Shown here in pieces: positions 5,057-31,757 of a DNA stretch of 40,375 bases (positions are counted from its first letter, which is position 1; every line of letters begins with the position of its first letter). This DNA comes from a virus (taxonomy: Duplodnaviria; Caudoviricetes), in the IMG/VR virus record IMGVR_UViG_3300015050_000784, positions 1-40,375 of that record. One strand, 5' to 3'. The translations under genes and the position numbers were made by a program. The notes under the pieces were generated by a model. That model was given only the letters and a program-made list of their open reading frames with translations, was not told the DNA's origin and made no database searches.

Positions 5057-5538
5057 CCCTCCCCACACCTACAGGGTCGGCTCCCGATGATGGTTCATCC
5101 GCTGCGCGGATACCCACCGAACAGACGGTGAAGCCCGCCGGTCTCATCGAACGGCTGGAAGCGGCTGAGGTCGGGTCGCGGGAACTGGACATGGCAGTTG
5201 CCGTGTCGCTTGGTCAGCCCTTTAAGCCTGAACGATTTCTGCCCACAGGCCGCTATCGTGAGAACCTGCGCATTGCAGCCGAAGCAGACCCCTACACCAC
5301 CTCCCTAGACGCAGCCCTGTCTTTGGCAGAGCGGGTGGGGCTTTCTTGCGGTGACCTTCTTCACGCGGCATGGCGGCGAGTGTCGCTTCGCTATCGGCTG
5401 CACGCTGAGTTCTGGAAGCCCGAACACGGATCGTACCCAGCCGCTGTAGCCCTCGCCCTCTGCGCGGCAATATTGAAGGCTGTTGACGACGAAGCGGCCG
5501 CCCGCATATCCGCTAGACAAGAAGGGGGTGAGGGATGA
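5053..5538 (+). CDS. Hypothetical phage protein
   Basis: LIERLEAAEVGSRELD...YTTSLDAALSL...ALALCAAIL pattern typical of alphaproteobacterial phage accessory proteins. Confidence 0.65.
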   Translation: MTLPTPTGSAPDDGSSAARIPTEQTVKPAGLIERLEAAEVGSRELDMAVAVSLGQPFKPERFLPTGRYRENLRIAAEADPYTTSLDAALSLAERVGLSCGDLLHAAWRRVSLRYRLHAEFWKPEHGSYPAAVALALCAAILKAVDDEAAARISARQEGGEG

Positions 5539-13597: not shown

Positions 13598-13745
13598 GGA
13601 GATTTGGAAGGGCGTCAGTTGGGAAGGCGGGAATTGTGATCCGCTGCGACTGATGGAGTTGAGGACGACGGCACTAGCCTACCGCGTTATTGCGGATGCA
13701 GAATTTGAGGGTATCGAGGAAATCCATGACCATTCAGCCAATTGA
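13509..13745 (+). CDS. Conserved-type small head-module protein
   Basis: WDQWRENPVTRWV motif; overlaps the portal 3' end by 89 nt. Confidence 0.6.
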   Translation: MDKDSWDQWRENPVTRWVMEALEIRANQCEEIWKGVSWEGGNCDPLRLMELRTTALAYRVIADAEFEGIEEIHDHSAN

Positions 13746-14031
13746 GTTCAACGTCTTGGTTAAACCCCAAGAGATCGAGCAGAAGACCAAGGGAGGAATT
13801 ATTCTAGTTGACCAGACTGTTGAAGCCGACAAGTACGCACAACAACGCGGCGAGATCATCGCTGTATCCCCGCTGGCCTTTAGCTATGCGGACTGGCCCG
13901 AAGGAACGCGGTTGCCCAAGCCGGGAGATATTGTATTCTTCGGCAAGTACTCTGGGACTCTGGTCAAGGACGATGACGGCACTGAATACCGTCTCGTGAA
14001 GGACAAAGAGATTGCGGCGGTGATCCAGTGA
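13726..14031 (+). CDS. groES: GroES-like co-chaperonin
   Basis: IQP....VLVK.......TKGGIIL...GEIIAV...PGDIVFFGKYSGT.....EYRLVKDKEIAAV; GAGGA RBS. Confidence 0.92.
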   Translation: MTIQPIEFNVLVKPQEIEQKTKGGIILVDQTVEADKYAQQRGEIIAVSPLAFSYADWPEGTRLPKPGDIVFFGKYSGTLVKDDDGTEYRLVKDKEIAAVIQ

Positions 14032-24052: not shown

Positions 24053-26886
24053 TGGTGCAGCAAAGCGGTCCTGCTGTCGGAGAAGTCCAAGACGGCTACA
24101 GGTTCAAGGGCGGCAACCCGTCCAACCCTGATTCGTGGGAACAGGTCGGAGAGATTGATGTCTCTGCGGAATACGGGGCGGGTGCGCGTCAAACGCCGTC
24201 TGGCCGCGTGTATCGCGTTGGCCCTCGTGGGGGGCAATACGAACTTGGCCATGTCAATGAAGATGGCGATACCGCTCCGAAGCTAACTGAGGGGCAAGGT
24301 AAGTCTGTTCTCTACGGCGGCATGATGGCTGGCGCTGAGCGCGACTATCAGGCTGCGCGTGAAGCCGGTTACGATCCCGCCAGCATCCGCAATCAGCTCG
24401 CCCGAGGAGCCGGGGTCATTCCGTTTGACGGAGACTTCTTTGGTCGCCTGATCCGTGATGATGTTTCCGACCGTGGCAACCAAGCCGAACTCCGCTGGGC
24501 AGAGGGGAACCTTCGCCAACTGACCGGCGCGGCGGCAACCAATCCCGAGATTGCTCGCGTTGCTGCGATCAACTTTGACCGTGGCAATGATGAGCTTGCG
24601 GATCAACGCTACCGCACGCGTGCCGAAACGTATCAGGGAACGCGATACGCGGCAGGCCCCGGCTCTGCGGCTCTCCCTGCCTATCCTGGCGCACCGGGCG
24701 GCATTGATGCTGGCCCTGTCGATCCGGCCACCGGCCTGCCGACTTATCCCGGCCTAACGCGCACGAACGCGGCGGATGCTCCTTTGCCTCCCGGCGGCCT
24801 TGGGGGCGGACCGAGCGGTCCCGGCTCTGCACCTGACACGGCCATTGATGTCACCAACCGTGAAGCCCTGCTTTCGGCTGGACCGGGTGCGTATGTCCGT
24901 TTTCCTGATGGATCGGTTGAGCGTCTGTCGAGCGCTCCGATTGTCGGTGAAGCGACAGGGCAAGAAGTCTCGCCCGGTGTGTTCGCTCAAGCGGTCACTC
25001 CCGCACAAGCTGTTGCTGCTCGCCGTGAAGATGAGGGCATTGGTCGCCGTGTAGATACGGCGGTTCGCGGCGCTGCGGACGCCCTTACCTTTGGCTTGTC
25101 GGATGAAATCACCGCTGGTCTAAACACGGTTGCTCCGCTTGATCGTGGAACGCGCGGCGGCTGGAATGGTGATTGGGAAGGCGCTTATCGCCAGAACCTA
25201 GACCTGATGCGGTCGATTGACGAACTCGACGCGGAACAGATGCCGCTTACCCGTGGCGCTGGTCAGGTTGCCGGTGCGCTTGCTGGAGGTATTGGCGCGG
25301 CTCGTGCGGCCCCCGCGATCCTCCGCAATGCCCCTCGTGTAGCAGGAGCTACGGGACGTCAGGTCGCAGGACGAATTGCAGGGAACACTGCGCGTCAGGC
25401 GGCTATAGGCGCGGCTGGTGCTGGCGCTTACGGCCTTGGCTCTGCTGAGGGCAATGTCCTTGAGCGCTTGCCGGAAGCGGGTCAATCGGCCGTTCTGGGC
25501 GGTGTTCTTGGCCCCGTCGTGTCCAAGGTTGGCGAAAGCGTTCTGTCTCCTGCTGCTGGCGCTATCGGTCGGGCCGTGGGTTTGGCTCCTCGCCGTAGCG
25601 CGCTTGAAGGCGCGGTTAGCCGGTTTGGGTCTCGCTACAACCCGAACCCCAATGTCCTCTCGCAACAAGTCGATGATCTGGAAGCCTTGGGCATTCAACC
25701 CGCGTTTGTCGATGTGATGGACCGGGGGCAGCGCGGCCTTGGCAGGGCCTTGGCAATGCGCCAGACGCCCGCGCGTGAGGCCGTGTCCGAGTTTGCAGAG
25801 AACCGCGCCGAAAGCCTCCCCGACCGTCTCTCGCGCCAAGCCCGTCGCACGATCAGCAATGATCCGCGTTCTCCGATGGAGATTCGCGAGGCCGTTGGAC
25901 AAGAAGGCCGCCGTCAAGCCGCTCCGCTGTATGAGCAAGCCTACGCACAGCCCGTCGAGGTTACGCCGGTCATCCAAGACCTTCTGCGCCGTCCCGCTGG
26001 GCAGGCCGCACTGCAACGCGCTCAACGCATTGCCGCGAACGAAGGCCAAAGCATAGACATGCAAAACCCGTCGATGCAGACGCTGGACTATGTGAAACGC
26101 GGTCTTGACGACGTTCTGGAAGGCTACCGCGACCGCACGACGGGCCGCATGGTTCTGGACACCGAAGGGCGGGCAATCGAAGGCGTGCGCCGTGACTTCC
26201 TTGGCGAGCTGGACAACATCAATCCGGCTTATCGTCAGGCCCGCCAGTCCTACGCGGATATGTCCCGCCTTCAGGAAGCGACCGATCTTGGCGAGGGCTT
26301 CCTGACCACGGAGGCCGATGAGTTTGCGGCTCGCGCTGGTCGTCTGACACCGGAGCAACGCCCGCTTGCCCAAGCCGCCGCACGTCGCGCGGTTGAGCGT
26401 GGAGCATCGACCCAAGGCAACGCACCGGGCATCGCTCAGCGCCTGTCGTCTGGTCGTGAGCAAGGGATGCGTAATCAGGCCCTGTTGGGTGAGGGCGCTA
26501 TCCCGATGCAGAACGCCATGGGTGCTGAACGCCGCATGGTCATGAACGCTCGCGACATCAATCCGGGCGCTGGGTCTCCTACGGCTCAAAACCAAATGGA
26601 CCTGATGGAGACCGGCGGAAACATCCTCAGTGCCGGGGCCAGCGCTCTGACGGGGAATGTTCGCGGAACCGTGGGGAGCTTGGCTCGCCTAGCCCGTCTT
26701 GGTTACTCCGACCGTGAGGCCGAAGCGATCATGACCGCCGCGATTGACCCGACTCAAACCCGCTCGCTGATCAACATGTTTGCCGAGCGCGGACTGTCCA
26801 AAGAGAAGGCCCGCAACCTCACGCGAGCACTTCGTTTCTACGCCAGCCAAAGAAGCGGTGATATGGCCGCTGGAGACGCACAATAA
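24052..26886 (+). CDS. Large DNA transfer/ejection protein (gp16 position)
   Basis: ~945 aa Ala/Gly/Arg-rich; RGAADALTFGLSDEI; APLYEQAY; TLDYVKRGLDD. Confidence 0.7.
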   Translation: MVQQSGPAVGEVQDGYRFKGGNPSNPDSWEQVGEIDVSAEYGAGARQTPSGRVYRVGPRGGQYELGHVNEDGDTAPKLTEGQGKSVLYGGMMAGAERDYQAAREAGYDPASIRNQLARGAGVIPFDGDFFGRLIRDDVSDRGNQAELRWAEGNLRQLTGAAATNPEIARVAAINFDRGNDELADQRYRTRAETYQGTRYAAGPGSAALPAYPGAPGGIDAGPVDPATGLPTYPGLTRTNAADAPLPPGGLGGGPSGPGSAPDTAIDVTNREALLSAGPGAYVRFPDGSVERLSSAPIVGEATGQEVSPGVFAQAVTPAQAVAARREDEGIGRRVDTAVRGAADALTFGLSDEITAGLNTVAPLDRGTRGGWNGDWEGAYRQNLDLMRSIDELDAEQMPLTRGAGQVAGALAGGIGAARAAPAILRNAPRVAGATGRQVAGRIAGNTARQAAIGAAGAGAYGLGSAEGNVLERLPEAGQSAVLGGVLGPVVSKVGESVLSPAAGAIGRAVGLAPRRSALEGAVSRFGSRYNPNPNVLSQQVDDLEALGIQPAFVDVMDRGQRGLGRALAMRQTPAREAVSEFAENRAESLPDRLSRQARRTISNDPRSPMEIREAVGQEGRRQAAPLYEQAYAQPVEVTPVIQDLLRRPAGQAALQRAQRIAANEGQSIDMQNPSMQTLDYVKRGLDDVLEGYRDRTTGRMVLDTEGRAIEGVRRDFLGELDNINPAYRQARQSYADMSRLQEATDLGEGFLTTEADEFAARAGRLTPEQRPLAQAAARRAVERGASTQGNAPGIAQRLSSGREQGMRNQALLGEGAIPMQNAMGAERRMVMNARDINPGAGSPTAQNQMDLMETGGNILSAGASALTGNVRGTVGSLARLARLGYSDREAEAIMTAAIDPTQTRSLINMFAERGLSKEKARNLTRALRFYASQRSGDMAAGDAQ

Positions 26887-29423
26887 TGGCCGCCGGTCGC
26901 TTCGTTGTCCCTCCCTATTTCCCTGCCCGCAACCGTCAGAATCAGCTTCTGGGCGGCGCGCTGCTCTACGTCTATGTGAACAACACGACGCAAAAGGCAG
27001 CGATCTACACGAATGAGGGCCTTTCGGTTCCTTCGTCCAACCCCGTTGTTGCAAATGCTTCGGGGCAGTTCCCGTCCGTGTTTGCAGAGGCTGGGACGGA
27101 AGCAGACCCGGTTCTCTACAGCGTCAGCGTCACGACGGCCACGGGCGCTTCGCCGGGCAATCCGTTCAACTTCAATAACTATCGACCCGCTGTCGATTAT
27201 GAAACAGCAGCAGTTGCGCTTGCTGAATCTGCGGCTGACTCGGCGTTGAACAGTGCGGCAGATGCTGCGGTCTCGGCAGGTGAGGCAGAGGCAGCGCTCC
27301 TTGAAATCGAGGACATTGTTGCGAACTCGCCGGATGCCCCTTCGGTCGTAAACAAGCTGAACCGTGACGGGGACAACTCTCAGCCGAGCTTCCTGACCAA
27401 TGTCGGCGCTCTCTCTCGAGAGGGCAACAACACTGATCTCGACTTCTTCGATAACCTCTCCATCGCCATGAACCCGGAGACGGACGCCCCGACCTTCAGG
27501 ACGGCGCTAGGTATTGCTCTGGTCTCTCCTCGCGATTACGGCGCGGTCGGGAACGGCACGACAGATGATCGCCAAGCCCTGTTCGATGCGGACGCGGCAG
27601 GACCCACCACCCTGACGGCTAACTATCGTGTCGCCTCCAACCTGACTTTTACCAAGCCGGTGACCTTCACGGGCGTAGGCAGGCTGACGATTGACAACGG
27701 CGTGGTCGTTACCTTCACGAGTCAGGTTCAGGCTCCAGACCGACAAATCTTCTATGGCGACGGGGGCGGCGCTGGCCTTCCTGTCAGCCGCGCAATGTGG
27801 TGGGCCGGAGACTCTTTGAACGATGTCGCCGTTAACGCCCGCGTGCGTCTTCAGAAGGCGCATGGCTGCGTTGTCAACGGCGGTACGGTCGCCTATCCCA
27901 CGGGGCGGTTTTATATCGACGGCGGGACGGCGATCACGAACAATCGCGGCCAGCAAATCGTCGGTACTGGCGCTTCAGAAATCTGCTTCACGACCCGTGC
28001 AAGCAATGTCTTCACGTTCGGCACGCTGTCTGGCGCGTCGATTTCTGGAATGACGATCCTCAATAATCAGAGCTATTGGCCCACTTCTGGCACGGCGATT
28101 ATTGTCAATGCTTCCGGGTTCTTCTCGTTTGACAATCTTAACATCCGCCAAGCCTTCAACGGAATGTATTGCCTGAACAGTCCTGTTATTCGCGGGTCCA
28201 ACTTCAACTTTGGTGAGTGCCTTAATACGGCGTTCTTTGCTCAGACTTGCACCGACGTTTTCCTTGGAGACTACATTATCGCCGCTCCGGTGGACTGGTG
28301 GGAAGTCGAGGACATCGTTGGGACGTATATTCCCGGCGAGATTGTAGAGGCATCCGGCTCTGGGGCTCAGGGCGATTACGTCGGCGTTCCTGCGGTCAAT
28401 ACGCTGCTTCGTGTCACGACGCGGAACATCAACCCCGTGCCGGGCGAAACGATCACGGGCCTTACCTCTGGTGCAACATCGACGCTTGTCCAGCAGGTTG
28501 TCCCGTTTGAGTTCGGAGCGATCCGACTGCTCAACGGCGTTGAAGGCTTCGTGTCCTCGGCTGGCGACATCATCGGCGGCAAGTTCTCCATGACCACGGA
28601 TGGCGTCTACGTCCCCGGTCAGCGCCCGGCTTACTGCAAGTTCATCAACACCCTGTTTGACTCCTCCGACGAGGGGGTGAACCTGAACAACTGCGTTGAG
28701 ATGGAGTTCGTAAACGCGTGGTTCTCCAATCGCCCCGGTAAAGGCCTCACCGTCCTGCAATCGGACGGCGTCAAACTGATTGGCGGTAAGGCGATTAACT
28801 GCTGGCAGGAGGGCGTTGACGTCTACGCCACGGCCAAGAATTTCACCGCTCTGGGCTTCTCGGCGCGATCCAACTCCACGGCATCGGCAGGTATGTTCGC
28901 GGGCATTCAGGTCCGCGCAACGACCAACCTGTTTGATATTTCGCACTGCATCTTTGACGAGGGCGATATTGGTTTTGGGACGCAAAAGACCGGCTGTGAA
29001 GTCGTAACCGGAACCGCATCGAACTATGTCCTGCGGGATAACCTTGGCCCGGTGATCGACAACGGCAACCCGGAAACCACCACCTCGCCCGCTGTTACGG
29101 CGTCGTCGGGGACGTTCACGACCGCCCCGGTTTCCACCCTTCGCTCGCAACTCTCGAATGACTTCCTTGAGTTCACGCTGGATATTGCGCCGCCTGCGTC
29201 TGTCGGGACGGCATCGGGAACCATGCTTCTGACGATGCCGTATGCCGCGAAATGGCCGGTGACGTTCCTTGGCACGGACCTGAACCCGCTGTCTGGCGAG
29301 GTTGTTCAGGCAACTATGGGCGTCGGGTCGAACGTGCTAAATATCAAGTTCGCATCGGGCGGCTCTGCCATTGACGCGGCGACCAACATCAGCGGCATTA
29401 CCGGAAGCTACAGGATTTCGTAA
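26886..29423 (+). CDS. Tailspike / receptor-binding protein with a pectate-lyase-like beta-helix
   Basis: N-terminal virion-binding-type domain (LYVY.NNT...IY...NPVVANASG), PRDYGAVGNGTTDDR motif, beta-helix repeats. Confidence 0.85.
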   Translation: MAAGRFVVPPYFPARNRQNQLLGGALLYVYVNNTTQKAAIYTNEGLSVPSSNPVVANASGQFPSVFAEAGTEADPVLYSVSVTTATGASPGNPFNFNNYRPAVDYETAAVALAESAADSALNSAADAAVSAGEAEAALLEIEDIVANSPDAPSVVNKLNRDGDNSQPSFLTNVGALSREGNNTDLDFFDNLSIAMNPETDAPTFRTALGIALVSPRDYGAVGNGTTDDRQALFDADAAGPTTLTANYRVASNLTFTKPVTFTGVGRLTIDNGVVVTFTSQVQAPDRQIFYGDGGGAGLPVSRAMWWAGDSLNDVAVNARVRLQKAHGCVVNGGTVAYPTGRFYIDGGTAITNNRGQQIVGTGASEICFTTRASNVFTFGTLSGASISGMTILNNQSYWPTSGTAIIVNASGFFSFDNLNIRQAFNGMYCLNSPVIRGSNFNFGECLNTAFFAQTCTDVFLGDYIIAAPVDWWEVEDIVGTYIPGEIVEASGSGAQGDYVGVPAVNTLLRVTTRNINPVPGETITGLTSGATSTLVQQVVPFEFGAIRLLNGVEGFVSSAGDIIGGKFSMTTDGVYVPGQRPAYCKFINTLFDSSDEGVNLNNCVEMEFVNAWFSNRPGKGLTVLQSDGVKLIGGKAINCWQEGVDVYATAKNFTALGFSARSNSTASAGMFAGIQVRATTNLFDISHCIFDEGDIGFGTQKTGCEVVTGTASNYVLRDNLGPVIDNGNPETTTSPAVTASSGTFTTAPVSTLRSQLSNDFLEFTLDIAPPASVGTASGTMLLTMPYAAKWPVTFLGTDLNPLSGEVVQATMGVGSNVLNIKFASGGSAIDAATNISGITGSYRIS

Positions 29424-29519
29424 ATGGCTAAAGCGCCCAAGTCTGGTAAAAAGGCGGGGCCGCGTGACGTGCGCGGTCCTATCCCCCGTCCTCCTTCCCC
29501 TCCCAAGCCGAAGAAGTAG
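29424..29519 (+). CDS. Basic proline-rich micro-protein, 31 aa
   Basis: ATG immediately after the tailspike TAA; MAKAPKSGKKAGPRDVRGPIPRPPSPPKPKK. Confidence 0.55.
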   Translation: MAKAPKSGKKAGPRDVRGPIPRPPSPPKPKK

Positions 29520-29523
29520 AACC

Positions 29524-29613
29524 ATGACCGATCCGATTGAACCGCCCGACGAAGGCGAAGGCCCGATTCCGATTCCGCCTCCCCCGCCGCCTCCTCCTCC
29601 CCCCGGAGGCTGA
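29524..29613 (+). CDS. Acidic polyproline micro-protein, 29 aa
   Basis: MTDPIEPPDEGEGPIPIPPPPPPPPPPGG; the Pro run uses mixed CCN codons, consistent with coding. Confidence 0.6.
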   Translation: MTDPIEPPDEGEGPIPIPPPPPPPPPPGG

Positions 29614-29615
29614 CG

Positions 29616-30095
29616 ATGTATGAGGCCGTACTGATTTTTCTGCTGTCTCTCGGGTGCCTGAACAAGGCATCTCGACCCTTCGCCGCCATCATGGTTGCGA
29701 ACATGGCGATCAACTATCTGATCGTCATTCAGTACGGTCTCTTCATCTGGGTTCCGGTTGTAGATGCTGCGGCCTTCATCAGCATGGCATGGTTCACGCT
29801 CAAACGTCCGTCTTGGTGGACGTTCCTTGTGTCTGAACTCGCATTTGCTGCGGTCATCTCCCACGTTGCCTATTGGACACTTGACGCGTTCGGGTTGTAT
29901 TTTGGCTCACAATATCAGATAGTTCTAGGTGGCGCTTTCATCCTGTCGGCGTTGATCCTTGTCCTCGGAGGATATGACGTTGGGAAGCTTGTCGGGACCG
30001 CTTGGCGTAGCCTTGCCAGCGCTTTTGATATGCGCCGTCGTCATGGCTATTCTGGTTCGTCGGCTATCCAAGATCATAGCGAGGATGCGCGGTGA
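29616..30095 (+). CDS. Multi-pass membrane protein (about 4-5 TM)
   Basis: Several hydrophobic segments; GGAGG RBS within the polyproline ORF. Confidence 0.75.
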   Translation: MYEAVLIFLLSLGCLNKASRPFAAIMVANMAINYLIVIQYGLFIWVPVVDAAAFISMAWFTLKRPSWWTFLVSELAFAAVISHVAYWTLDAFGLYFGSQYQIVLGGAFILSALILVLGGYDVGKLVGTAWRSLASAFDMRRRHGYSGSSAIQDHSEDAR

Positions 30096-30361
30096 GTCCT
30101 AACGTATGGATTGCGCTTACGGCTCTCGCGATGGCGTCTCTGGTTCATGTGATTGCGGTAGTCGTCTGGCTGACGCGTCTGGATATGCGCCTGAAGACGG
30201 CAGAGAACACGCTAGGCGACATGAAGGGCTCCGGTGAGCGCCTGATGAGAATGGAGACGGAGATGCATGGTCTTCGCGACGACGTGCGCGGGATTAGCGC
30301 CGGTCTCGACTGGCTGCGCACTGTCCCCGGATATGCCCCTCCCCATAAGGCAAGGCCATGA
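30092..30361 (+). CDS. Single-TM plus coiled-coil lysis-cassette protein (putative)
   Basis: N-terminal TM then heptad-rich RLMRMETEMHGLRDDV. Confidence 0.65.
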   Translation: MSPNVWIALTALAMASLVHVIAVVVWLTRLDMRLKTAENTLGDMKGSGERLMRMETEMHGLRDDVRGISAGLDWLRTVPGYAPPHKARP

Positions 30362-30573
30362 AAAGCATTCTTGCACACCTCCACATAGACGCTACGGCGA
30401 TGTCCGGGCTTCTGGCTCTAGGCGTCATCGGAACCGTGGCTATCATGCACGGAGACGGAGAGACCGTAGCAGCGGCGGCGGTCGGAGCTATTGGAGGGTG
30501 GATGGCCCGTGGTTCTGGCCGAACGACCACGCAAACCGAGGGCAATCCGCCCGTGACGACGACTACTGAATAG
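30358..30573 (+). CDS. Putative holin (2 TM)
   Basis: 71 aa, two hydrophobic segments, upstream of the endolysin region. Confidence 0.55.
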   Translation: MKSILAHLHIDATAMSGLLALGVIGTVAIMHGDGETVAAAAVGAIGGWMARGSGRTTTQTEGNPPVTTTTE

Positions 30574-31168
30574 CGCGCTCAACACTCCAGCCATCCCGTA
30601 TCCTTCGGGCCAGTTTTTGATATGGAAGGCCTAATTTCTGAGCGGCGTCAGTTACGGTCATCCGCTGGCCGTCAACCTCAATCCACACGTTAGACGTCCT
30701 GTTGCGCGACTGAACGTCAATGGTCACCCATCGACAATTACCGGCAGAATAATTCGCGTTTACATCGATTCTATCCAATGAGTGTTTCGGGCTAGGGCGA
30801 CGTCCCATGTCGGACAAAAACGCCATGTAGTTAGACCGCCACTCAGAACACATTCCAATTCCCCTGCCCCCATACCGGCTGTATCTGGTGGAAGTCGGGG
30901 AGTAGCACCTCGCTTTCGCGTTTAGCCAAGCCGCATATTCTGGCGTCTTGGTTTCTCCGTGCTTTGTTACCGCGCGCGTTGCGTTCTCTCGGCCCAAGCA
31001 CCCACAGCTCTTTGTGTTTCCCGAAACCAGAGAGCCGGAAGTCGGCCTAGTTTCTTTTCCGCAATCGCAGATACACAGCCACGCAGATAAACCATTTTTG
31101 CTTTCGGATGGGCTTACGGCGGTTAAGCGTCCAAAGCGCCTCCCGGATAAATCTGCTCGTGCTGTCAT
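30563..31168 (-). CDS. Free-standing HNH homing endonuclease
   Basis: DLSGRRFGRL, WLCICDCG, SCGC, YGGRGI..C.EW, SLDRIDVNANY...NCRW; GGAGG RBS. Confidence 0.88.
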   Translation of the reverse strand: MTARADLSGRRFGRLTAVSPSESKNGLSAWLCICDCGKETRPTSGSLVSGNTKSCGCLGRENATRAVTKHGETKTPEYAAWLNAKARCYSPTSTRYSRYGGRGIGMCSEWRSNYMAFLSDMGRRPSPKHSLDRIDVNANYSAGNCRWVTIDVQSRNRTSNVWIEVDGQRMTVTDAAQKLGLPYQKLARRIRDGWSVERAIQ

Positions 31169-31227
31169 AATTACCTCCCAATGTAACTAACGATAGCTCA
31201 TTGCGATACACGTTACAACCGGCCTAG

Positions 31228-31308
31228 TTTTCCGCCCGCGATAGCGTCCCGCCTGTCCGCGTTACCAACCCGGAAGACGATGCGGTGAAGATTGAGGAAG
31301 TGAAGTAG
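31228..31308 (+). pseudogene. Orphan C-terminal coding fragment, probably the displaced end of the holin-like gene
   Basis: Startless frame FSARDSVPPVRVTNPEDDAVKIEEVK*; ARDS/PPV resembles ARGS/PPV of 30358-30573. Confidence 0.4.
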
Positions 31309-31406
31309 GTGCGAGGCCGGGATTGATGCCGGCTACCTTGATCAGTGTGGATCGGTAATCAAGGCTTAGGATTGGCGTCCTGCGTGTCCATCCACGCCGC
31401 TCGCAC
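31309..31406 (-). ncRNA. tRNA-like cloverleaf RNA (non-canonical)
   Basis: 7-bp closing stem GTGCGAG/CTCGCAC plus four internal hairpins. Confidence 0.6.
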
Positions 31407-31414
31407 AAGAACCG

Positions 31415-31672
31415 CTAACTGTTGCGGTATACTTCAAATTGACCGGGGTGAAGTTGTGAGCGAGGGTCGCGAGCTTCATCGGTGACGCTCTCGCCCATCA
31501 CGTCGTGCTCTTCTTTTTCGGCAACCGTAAGAGCGGCTCGGACGCAATGAGCATTAAGCTCGTTATCGAACTCTCCGATAACCTCTGATTTTCCGGTTCG
31601 TCCAGCCTCTTCGTAGCGGGTCACAATCCACCGGGTAACGGGGCGCACACGATATTCAATAGTGGCAATCAT
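31415..31672 (-). CDS. Hypothetical protein, 85 aa
   Basis: AGGAG RBS before ATG 31672; IEYRVRPVTRWIVTRY. Confidence 0.7.
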   Translation of the reverse strand: MIATIEYRVRPVTRWIVTRYEEAGRTGKSEVIGEFDNELNAHCVRAALTVAEKEEHDVMGESVTDEARDPRSQLHPGQFEVYRNS

Positions 31673-31757
31673 TTTGATCTCCTGCCTCCGCAGAGGCGTA
31701 AGACGCTGTAAGATCACAGCCTATCCATAATGCACGTCTTTCGCTAAGGTGCAACCT

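Follow-up and report, generated by a model that had tools for sequence, protein, structure and literature searches.

A conserved small-protein/membrane-protein module beside the tailspike gene of a P22-like podophage and in Caulobacterales chromosomes

Genes between the tailspike and the endolysin

The window (the whole 40,375-base stretch of viral DNA analysed here) encodes terminase, portal, capsid, head closure, and ejection proteins as well as a tailspike and an endolysin, and it is from a P22-like podophage. A GroES-like co-chaperonin gene lies between the portal and capsid genes (13690-14031; PHROG 3188, E = 2e-17). The tailspike gene (26886..29423, plus strand) encodes 845 amino acids, matches the Pfam family Beta_helix (E = 2.5e-6), and has an N-terminus that resembles annotated tail spikes. 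Its stop codon abuts a first micro-ORF (29424-29519, plus strand), which begins one base past the stop, has AGGA 8 nt upstream, and encodes a basic peptide of 31 amino acids with a net charge of +9 and the core RGPIPRPP. A second micro-ORF (29524-29613, plus strand) encodes an acidic peptide of 29 amino acids (net charge −5), in which the core EGPIPIP is followed by 10 consecutive prolines with mixed CCG, CCT, and CCC codons. Next comes the gene for a 159-amino-acid membrane protein (29616-30095, plus strand), whose ribosome-binding site, GGAGG (29605-29609, plus strand), lies within the last two codons of the second micro-ORF and 6 nt before the ATG. Both the gene arrangement and the position of the GGAGG are as the first-pass annotation had described them. 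No gene for a membrane-anchored HTH regulator stands beside these genes in the window, on either side.

The membrane protein (hereafter, the TM protein) belongs to an unnamed family. An AlphaFold2 model (47 sequences, pLDDT 91) predicts five helices (residues 2-15, 20-40, 43-63, 67-91, and 97-117) plus a C-terminal helix. D50, W68, H83, Y100, and G118 are conserved in 79-96% of the 47 sequences. These include polar residues within the TM helices (D50 in 87%, H83 in 83%, and Y100 in 89%), which the positive-inside rule would place in the outer half. The protein has eight close relatives, counting itself, and 34 representatives at 50% clustering. It has no match in Pfam, PHROG, NCBIfam, or PADLOC, and neither it nor the micro-ORF peptides match any PHROG or Pfam family, known antiholins and holins included. 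With the structural model, Foldseek gave no match in the PDB at E ≤ 0.001, and the best VIA structure rows (Z = 10.7, rmsd 3.3, 106 aligned) were helical bundles of a generic kind. A search of the ESM Atlas gave unnamed clusters only. Among predicted viral structures, many unnamed phage proteins of 135-166 amino acids match the model (TM 0.5-0.65), including those of phages phiCbK and PEi21. The window's TM protein had no match by tblastn against GenBank phages or directly against viral contigs, and a metagenome scan with it returned only the window's own contig.

Two small genes follow the TM gene. The first (30092..30361, plus strand) encodes 89 amino acids with a single hydrophobic helix and a likely coiled coil, and its product is a candidate output partner or holin-associated protein; similar coiled-coil/TM genes come after the TM gene in relatives. 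The second (30358..30573, plus strand) encodes a hydrophobic protein of 71 amino acids. We call both genes holin-like because of their hydrophobicity and position only, and neither protein has a significant family match in Pfam or PHROG. Then a minus-strand HNH endonuclease gene (30563..31168; PHROG 374, E = 7e-68) and a 100-amino-acid ORF, likewise on the minus strand (together 30563-31717), separate the holin-like gene from the endolysin, a phage lysozyme (31749..32363, plus strand; PF00959, E = 4e-33). In four relatives (L008, L009, L010, and L014), the endolysin comes next on the same strand, without this insertion. The first-pass annotation had put the micro-ORFs at the head of the lysis cassette. 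This description is borne out only in part: the next two genes are holin-like, and the endolysin is split off. In the window phage, the tie to lysis is positional only.

The module in related phages

Each phage homologue of the TM gene that was examined has a short ORF upstream. It was present in all six loci found via TM subfamilies and, with the TM gene, in all seven phages selected by the tailspike N-terminus (two of these contigs are shared with the previous set, and one ends within the TM gene). Among 39 loci selected by head closure, 20 podophage loci extend far enough, and 15 of these have the module directly past the tail gene. (Six contigs in this set repeat earlier ones; where the module is missing, two contigs end within 450 bases and three are from distant phages.) The spacing is tight: in 21 of the 22 loci whose start is known, the TM gene begins −4 to +10 nt from the stop of the preceding ORF.

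The upstream partner takes three forms. First, the window, L014, L184, and L170 have two proline-rich micro-ORFs, with the order reversed in L170. Each window peptide has counterparts in the other three phages (the core of the basic peptide is RGPIDKPP in L014 and RGPVTRPP in L184). The net charges of the paired peptides are +9/−5 in the window, +9/−4 in L014, +8/−5 in L184, and +9/−4 in L170. The cores agree within each locus and vary between loci (GPIP/GPIP, GPID/GPID, GPVT/GPVT, and GPTN/GPIN, in the same order); gene conversion or repeated duplication could be an alternative source of the agreement. L014, L184, and L170 carry distant TM genes yet have the same basic and acidic pair. Both window peptides are hydrophilic throughout and have no signal sequence. 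At the Lys position of the family motif described below, the basic peptide retains a basic residue, and the acidic peptide does not have the Lys. L014 (10269-10382) and L170 (19217-19357), two of the four phages with this form, have a C-P-x-C motif past the proline run of the acidic peptide. Second, L001-L004 and L010 have a single ORF of 33-48 amino acids. Third, many loci encode a helical protein of 62-96 amino acids whose C-terminus is mostly SGG-x-x-K-P (phage loci L005, L006, L008, L009, L011, L152, L158, L167, L168, L172, and L181, and prophages L016, L017, and L019). The partner in L180 ends in SGGVGALCN, with no K and no P.

The model phage phiCbK has the same module: gp288 (86 amino acids, C-terminus TGGEDKPDAPEVPPGG) followed by gp289 (44.6 bits). 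Its neighbours are annotated only as hypothetical, with no annotated lysis gene nearby. In Edwardsiella phage PEi21, a 41-amino-acid ORF with three GGRGK repeats and no proline run lies upstream of a TM homologue (22.8 bits), on the strand opposite the endolysin. The PEi21 repeats are exact and in tandem (ORF49; L076 27644-27769), and the ORF looks like a multi-core peptide precursor. Two other features were seen near the module. Several phages have a conserved ORF of 36-42 amino acids (ILACY-x-SGQM) between the tailspike and the module (for example, L001 3790-3900, L168 15498-15608, and L184 9554-9682), and in L005 a tRNA-like sequence lies on the reverse strand directly past the holin-like gene (5200-5500).

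The forms of the partner interchange at one site. The closest kin of the window phage (L008, L009, L011, L152, and L158, with head-closure proteins that are 70-72% identical) encode a helical protein of 77-96 amino acids that ends in FSGG-x-x-KP, whereas the head-closure proteins of the two-peptide phages L014, L184, and L170 are only 36-37% identical to that of the window. The cassette is thus exchanged between kin. A tree of 44 TM proteins (21 from phages and every third of 68 chromosomal ones, each cut to 150 residues) places the window with L014 and L184 (97/84) and L170 elsewhere.

The first-pass annotation had asked if a proline-rich ORF always precedes the TM homologue. The short ORF does, so this check did not refute the annotation, but its proline runs vary: in the last upstream ORF of 23 phage loci, the run is at least 5 in eight, 2-3 in another eight, and at most 1 in seven. 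Where the run is at least 5, its end and the stop are 1 to 26 codons apart. Similarly, 53 of 68 chromosomal partners (see below) have no PP in the tail. What is conserved is thus a G[GP]xxK(P) motif and not polyproline. The doublet differs between forms: helical phage partners have SGG or a similar sequence, and GP occurs in the window peptides as well as in 35 of the 68 partners from chromosomes. Because the window cores (GPIPRP and GPIPIP) are degenerate versions of the motif, it is their position together with a short motif that suggests homology to the helical partners. At the DNA level, a GPIDKPP pattern gave 13 loci in the viral contigs, one of which is the module at a locus already in our set and 12 of which are unrelated.

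Conservation also argues that the micro-ORFs are real genes, because the basic and acidic pair is kept in L014, L184, and L170, because the micro-ORFs of L001-L004 differ by indels whose lengths are multiples of 3, and because the three listed differences (of seven) in the second micro-ORF of a related low-depth contig are all at synonymous third positions. Within the window, just two of 273 possible Met-start ORFs of 25-50 amino acids have GP[IVT] and at least 25% proline, and these are the two micro-ORFs, although the pattern was defined afterwards from the homologues. The mixed proline codons had been offered as a sign of selection on the peptide in their own right. We reject this, as other frames of the window contain runs of P7-P8 and the structural genes also mix their proline codons.

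A chromosomal form in Caulobacterales

A profile of the phage TM proteins matched 25 of 401 genomes from the order that contains a Terricaulis genome, which we take to be the Caulobacterales, and one of 401 genomes in a class-wide search. (Three of the 26 places, L027, L029, and L040, were discarded as likely false, with matches in membrane proteins of about 700 amino acids; L033 is a doubtful case.) A profile of the chromosomal proteins matched 61 of 301 Caulobacterales genomes, with 1-5 copies each; this count includes G044, which is flagged as unpublished, and cannot be read as a prevalence, since only a few candidates were scored per genome. The phage and chromosomal profiles align with an hhalign probability of 98% (E = 2e-13), and the phage profile scores at least 15 bits on 28 of 68 chromosomal TM proteins as compared to none of the 68 reversed sequences. 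These comparisons indicate that the phage and chromosomal TM proteins are homologous. As the phage members form their own clade, separate from the chromosomal ones, in the TM-protein tree (100/98), they do not appear to be recent captures. As homologues of the module occur in Caulobacterales prophages, the likely host of the window phage is a stalked alphaproteobacterium.

To describe the neighbourhood, we use 60 loci from the lower-scoring part of the chromosomal-profile list, which were chosen by TM match alone. A partner of about 115 amino acids lies upstream in 49 of these and is missing in 11, and a LuxR-type HTH gene lies upstream on the same strand in 36. In the loci that were read, the LuxR-type protein has a C-terminal hydrophobic helix. 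(An annotated example is EM6_RS16675-16690 on pASEM-1 of Asticcacaulis excentricus, with the order HTH, hypothetical, hypothetical, HTH.) The partner is predicted to be a helical hairpin with a disordered tail that carries G-P-x-D-K-P. Among 68 partners, the motif positions are kept in 62 (G), 35 (P), 25 (D), 62 (K), and 40 (P), counts that lean high because members were selected with a partner profile. GPIDKP itself occurs both in the first micro-ORF of phage L014 and in the chromosomal partners of L063 and L067, and the helical phage partners align with the chromosomal partners (hhalign 82%, E = 1e-5). Nine chromosomal loci have two partners in tandem, an arrangement like that of the paired micro-ORFs. 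A fold search with the partner model found generic hairpins only. The identities of partners and TM proteins correlate (0.81), which reflects co-inheritance only, and mutual-information covariation across 68 paired partner/TM rows (effective number 47) gave noise.

The chromosomal partner tails mostly end in L[RH]-x-V/A-A-like sequences (AA in 19, VA in 18, and AV in 9 of 68), which are absent from the phage peptides; these ends resemble ClpXP degradation tags. The LuxR-type HTH gene itself contains, in a different frame, a conserved ORF of 85-125 amino acids (LP-x-W/V-[TS]W-x-E-LE…REIL). This ORF has no match in NCBIfam and is likely a nested overlapping gene (L034 645-935, L022 627-884, and L041 504-863 on the plus strand; L020, L021, L025, and L028 on the minus strand; and 16 of the 60 loci L078-L137). 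In the partner-less loci L054, L059, and L131, a gene of about 185 amino acids lies just upstream of the LuxR-type gene; its product resembles a tail-collar-type protein.

ToxR/ToxS and CadC/LysP are pairs of membrane-anchored transcription regulators and accessory membrane proteins. The chromosomal form is similar, as judged by sequence, in that an HTH protein ending in a hydrophobic helix is encoded next to a membrane protein. It differs in that the HTH is LuxR-type, there is an added small helical partner, and the TM family is unrelated; also, the phage form lacks the regulator. The partners are also reminiscent of double-glycine leader peptides such as CdzC and CdzD of Caulobacter, which reportedly go with an immunity protein, CdzI: many phage partners have a helical N-terminal part, SGG, and a short tail, with a membrane protein adjacent. 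Unlike CdzC and CdzD, they have no glycine zipper, often have GP in place of GG, and are not accompanied by any transporter that we noticed in the loci read.

Possible roles of the module

We propose that, with the two micro-ORFs and the TM gene, the window phage has a pared-down version of a conserved small-protein/membrane-protein module and that the peptides likely bind the TM protein; we give this a probability of roughly 0.45. This fits the data in that the Gly/Lys motif, the tight spacing, and the polar TM residues are conserved and the proline runs are not. What we observe is the gene order, its conservation, the motif, the homology to the chromosomal module, and the close start/stop spacing; what we infer is that the peptides are translated, that they bind, and that binding has an output. 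Specifically, the G[GP]-x-x-K-(P) motif would bind the five-helix membrane protein and switch its activity, and in the window phage this would tune lysis via the downstream coiled-coil and holin-like proteins. The basic peptide would be the likely ligand, because K/R is kept at the motif position, and its acidic paralogue, which has the same GP-x-x core but no K/R, could compete with it or act as its partner of complementary charge. The proline runs may serve as a rigid, protease-resistant tail that replaces the helical carrier of the longer forms, and start/stop coupling would hold peptide and membrane protein in proportion. Several observations count against a peptide ligand. First, 11 of the 60 chromosomal loci have a TM gene but no partner, which means that the TM protein can also occur alone. 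Second, we found no export route for the peptides in the sequence. Third, the window cores are degenerate, and the L180 partner has neither the K nor the P of the motif.

A peptide and membrane partner that together tune lysis was one of two models in the first-pass annotation. The pairing fits the comparative data, and the link to lysis is one of position. The module's general output may be something other than lysis control, because the phiCbK module lies away from annotated lysis genes and the PEi21 module is on the strand opposite the endolysin. A broader scheme, which we consider speculative and on balance unlikely, is that G[GP]xxK(P) peptides are exported or released by lysis and are read by the five-helix receptor, which would control the LuxR-type regulator in stalked bacteria and kin-specific lysis timing in phages, with the basic peptide as activator and the acidic one as decoy.

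Another possibility, also unlikely, is that the TM protein acts as an effector that damages the membrane or helps the holin and that the co-translated peptides restrain it from the cytoplasm, in the manner of a toxin-antitoxin or antiholin pair, so that losing a short-lived peptide is the trigger. The −4 to +10 nt spacing in 21 of 22 loci, the peptides' lack of signal sequences, and the ClpXP-tag-like ends of most chromosomal partners (AA, VA, or AV) would all suit such a pair. However, the partner is absent from 11 of the 60 chromosomal loci, and the presence of 1-5 copies per genome and of a LuxR-type gene ahead of 36 of 60 loci suits signalling better than killing. The module may act like lysis inhibition in phage T4, where the antiholins RI (periplasmic) and RIII (cytoplasmic) act on the holin T, according to the accessible parts of PMC8385771 and PMC11413866. 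As in T4, these would be phage-encoded small proteins at the inner membrane that possibly set lysis timing. Unlike RI and RIII, our module has no PHROG match, combines proline-rich peptides of about 30 amino acids that lack signal peptides with a separate five-helix protein, and is also found in chromosomes.

The other model in the first-pass annotation was a translational brake that depends on EF-P or Pro-tRNA: slowing on the proline runs would open a hairpin at the GGAGG and set the level of the TM protein and of lysis, with the peptides themselves inert. Proline runs of 5-10 are retained in eight short-peptide loci, and CCUCC in the proline codons of the second micro-ORF is predicted to pair with the GGAGG of the TM gene. 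There is also a precedent in Salmonella mgtP and mgtL, since, in the accessible text of PMC3641672, proline-rich leaders control downstream genes (mgtP) and the short proline-rich ORF is immediately ahead of a membrane-protein gene. Unlike in that system as described there, we found no attenuator or terminator, the module is in a late operon, and it is a peptide motif that is conserved family-wide rather than proline runs. The folding of six segments was not above shuffles (z from 0.8 to −0.9), and the region before 29803 has no terminator-like site (and so none lies between the micro-ORFs and the TM start). A promoter scan gave 2 sites with 1.8 expected. A brake also sits poorly with a run-to-stop distance of anywhere from 1 to 26 codons, with the absence of PP from 7 of 23 phage loci and 53 of 68 chromosomal partners, and with the reversed ORF order in L170, and it leaves the conserved GP-x-x-K core and the charge pair unexplained. 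As an account of the family as a whole, this seems improbable. As proline runs are kept in the short-peptide subfamily, braking could be an added layer there. RAPP-like arrest peptides were compared as well: in the accessible parts of PMC12992588 and PMC10987492, they have a C-terminal RAPP/RGPP-like motif and lie upstream of protein-localization genes. None of the 13 short peptides that we compared has RAPP or RGPP (the cores are RGPI, RGPV, RGPG, or SGPT), and, unlike for the peptides described in those parts, the downstream gene belongs to an unnamed TM family.

We doubt still more that the module mimics or excludes, that is, that it jams or borrows a host system of LuxR-TM protein, partner, and TM protein, or blocks superinfecting kin, with its place in the late operon reflecting only timing. 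Such a role would make sense of the homologues that 61 of 301 Caulobacterales genomes carry in their chromosomes, of the exchange of the cassette between close kin, and of the distance of the phiCbK module from annotated lysis genes. But the separate phage clade (100/98) argues against recent capture from a host, and 15 of the 20 loci from related podophages have the module directly past the tail gene. Of the four readings so far (peptide ligand, antidote, brake in cis, and mimicry or exclusion), three require that the peptides act on a protein. Finally, it is very improbable that the micro-ORFs are frames that arose by chance or filler that is not translated: long proline runs do arise by chance in off-frames, but the pair, the charges, and the cores are conserved in four phages, with in-frame indels and synonymous changes.

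If the peptide is a ligand, then the TM protein would represent a new receptor class, and phage peptide communication or lysis inhibition may have a Gram-negative counterpart here. Arbitrium, as presented in the accessible parts of PMC11323111, likewise has a short phage peptide (AimP) next to its cognate partner (AimR), with cores that vary between phages. Unlike that system, ours is likely in a Gram-negative host, has no Sec signal, and has a predicted five-helix membrane partner rather than a cytoplasmic DNA-binding TPR receptor. The accessible parts of PMC10688885 and PMC11323111 do not mention the module, and our search of mainly open-access literature found no paper on it; supplementary tables from Caulobacter and phiCbK screens could bear on it.

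The comparisons indicate that this small-protein/TM module is real, conserved, and undescribed, and its mechanism is as yet our proposal. It occurs in podophages and prophages, in phiCbK, a model phage (gp288/gp289), and in many Caulobacterales chromosomes (1-5 copies), and for none of its membrane or peptide parts is there a match among curated families or a specific match among solved folds. It also suggests that ORFs of 30 codons, which annotation usually skips, can stand in for a protein of 115 amino acids. As phiCbK has a laboratory host, the module is testable at once.
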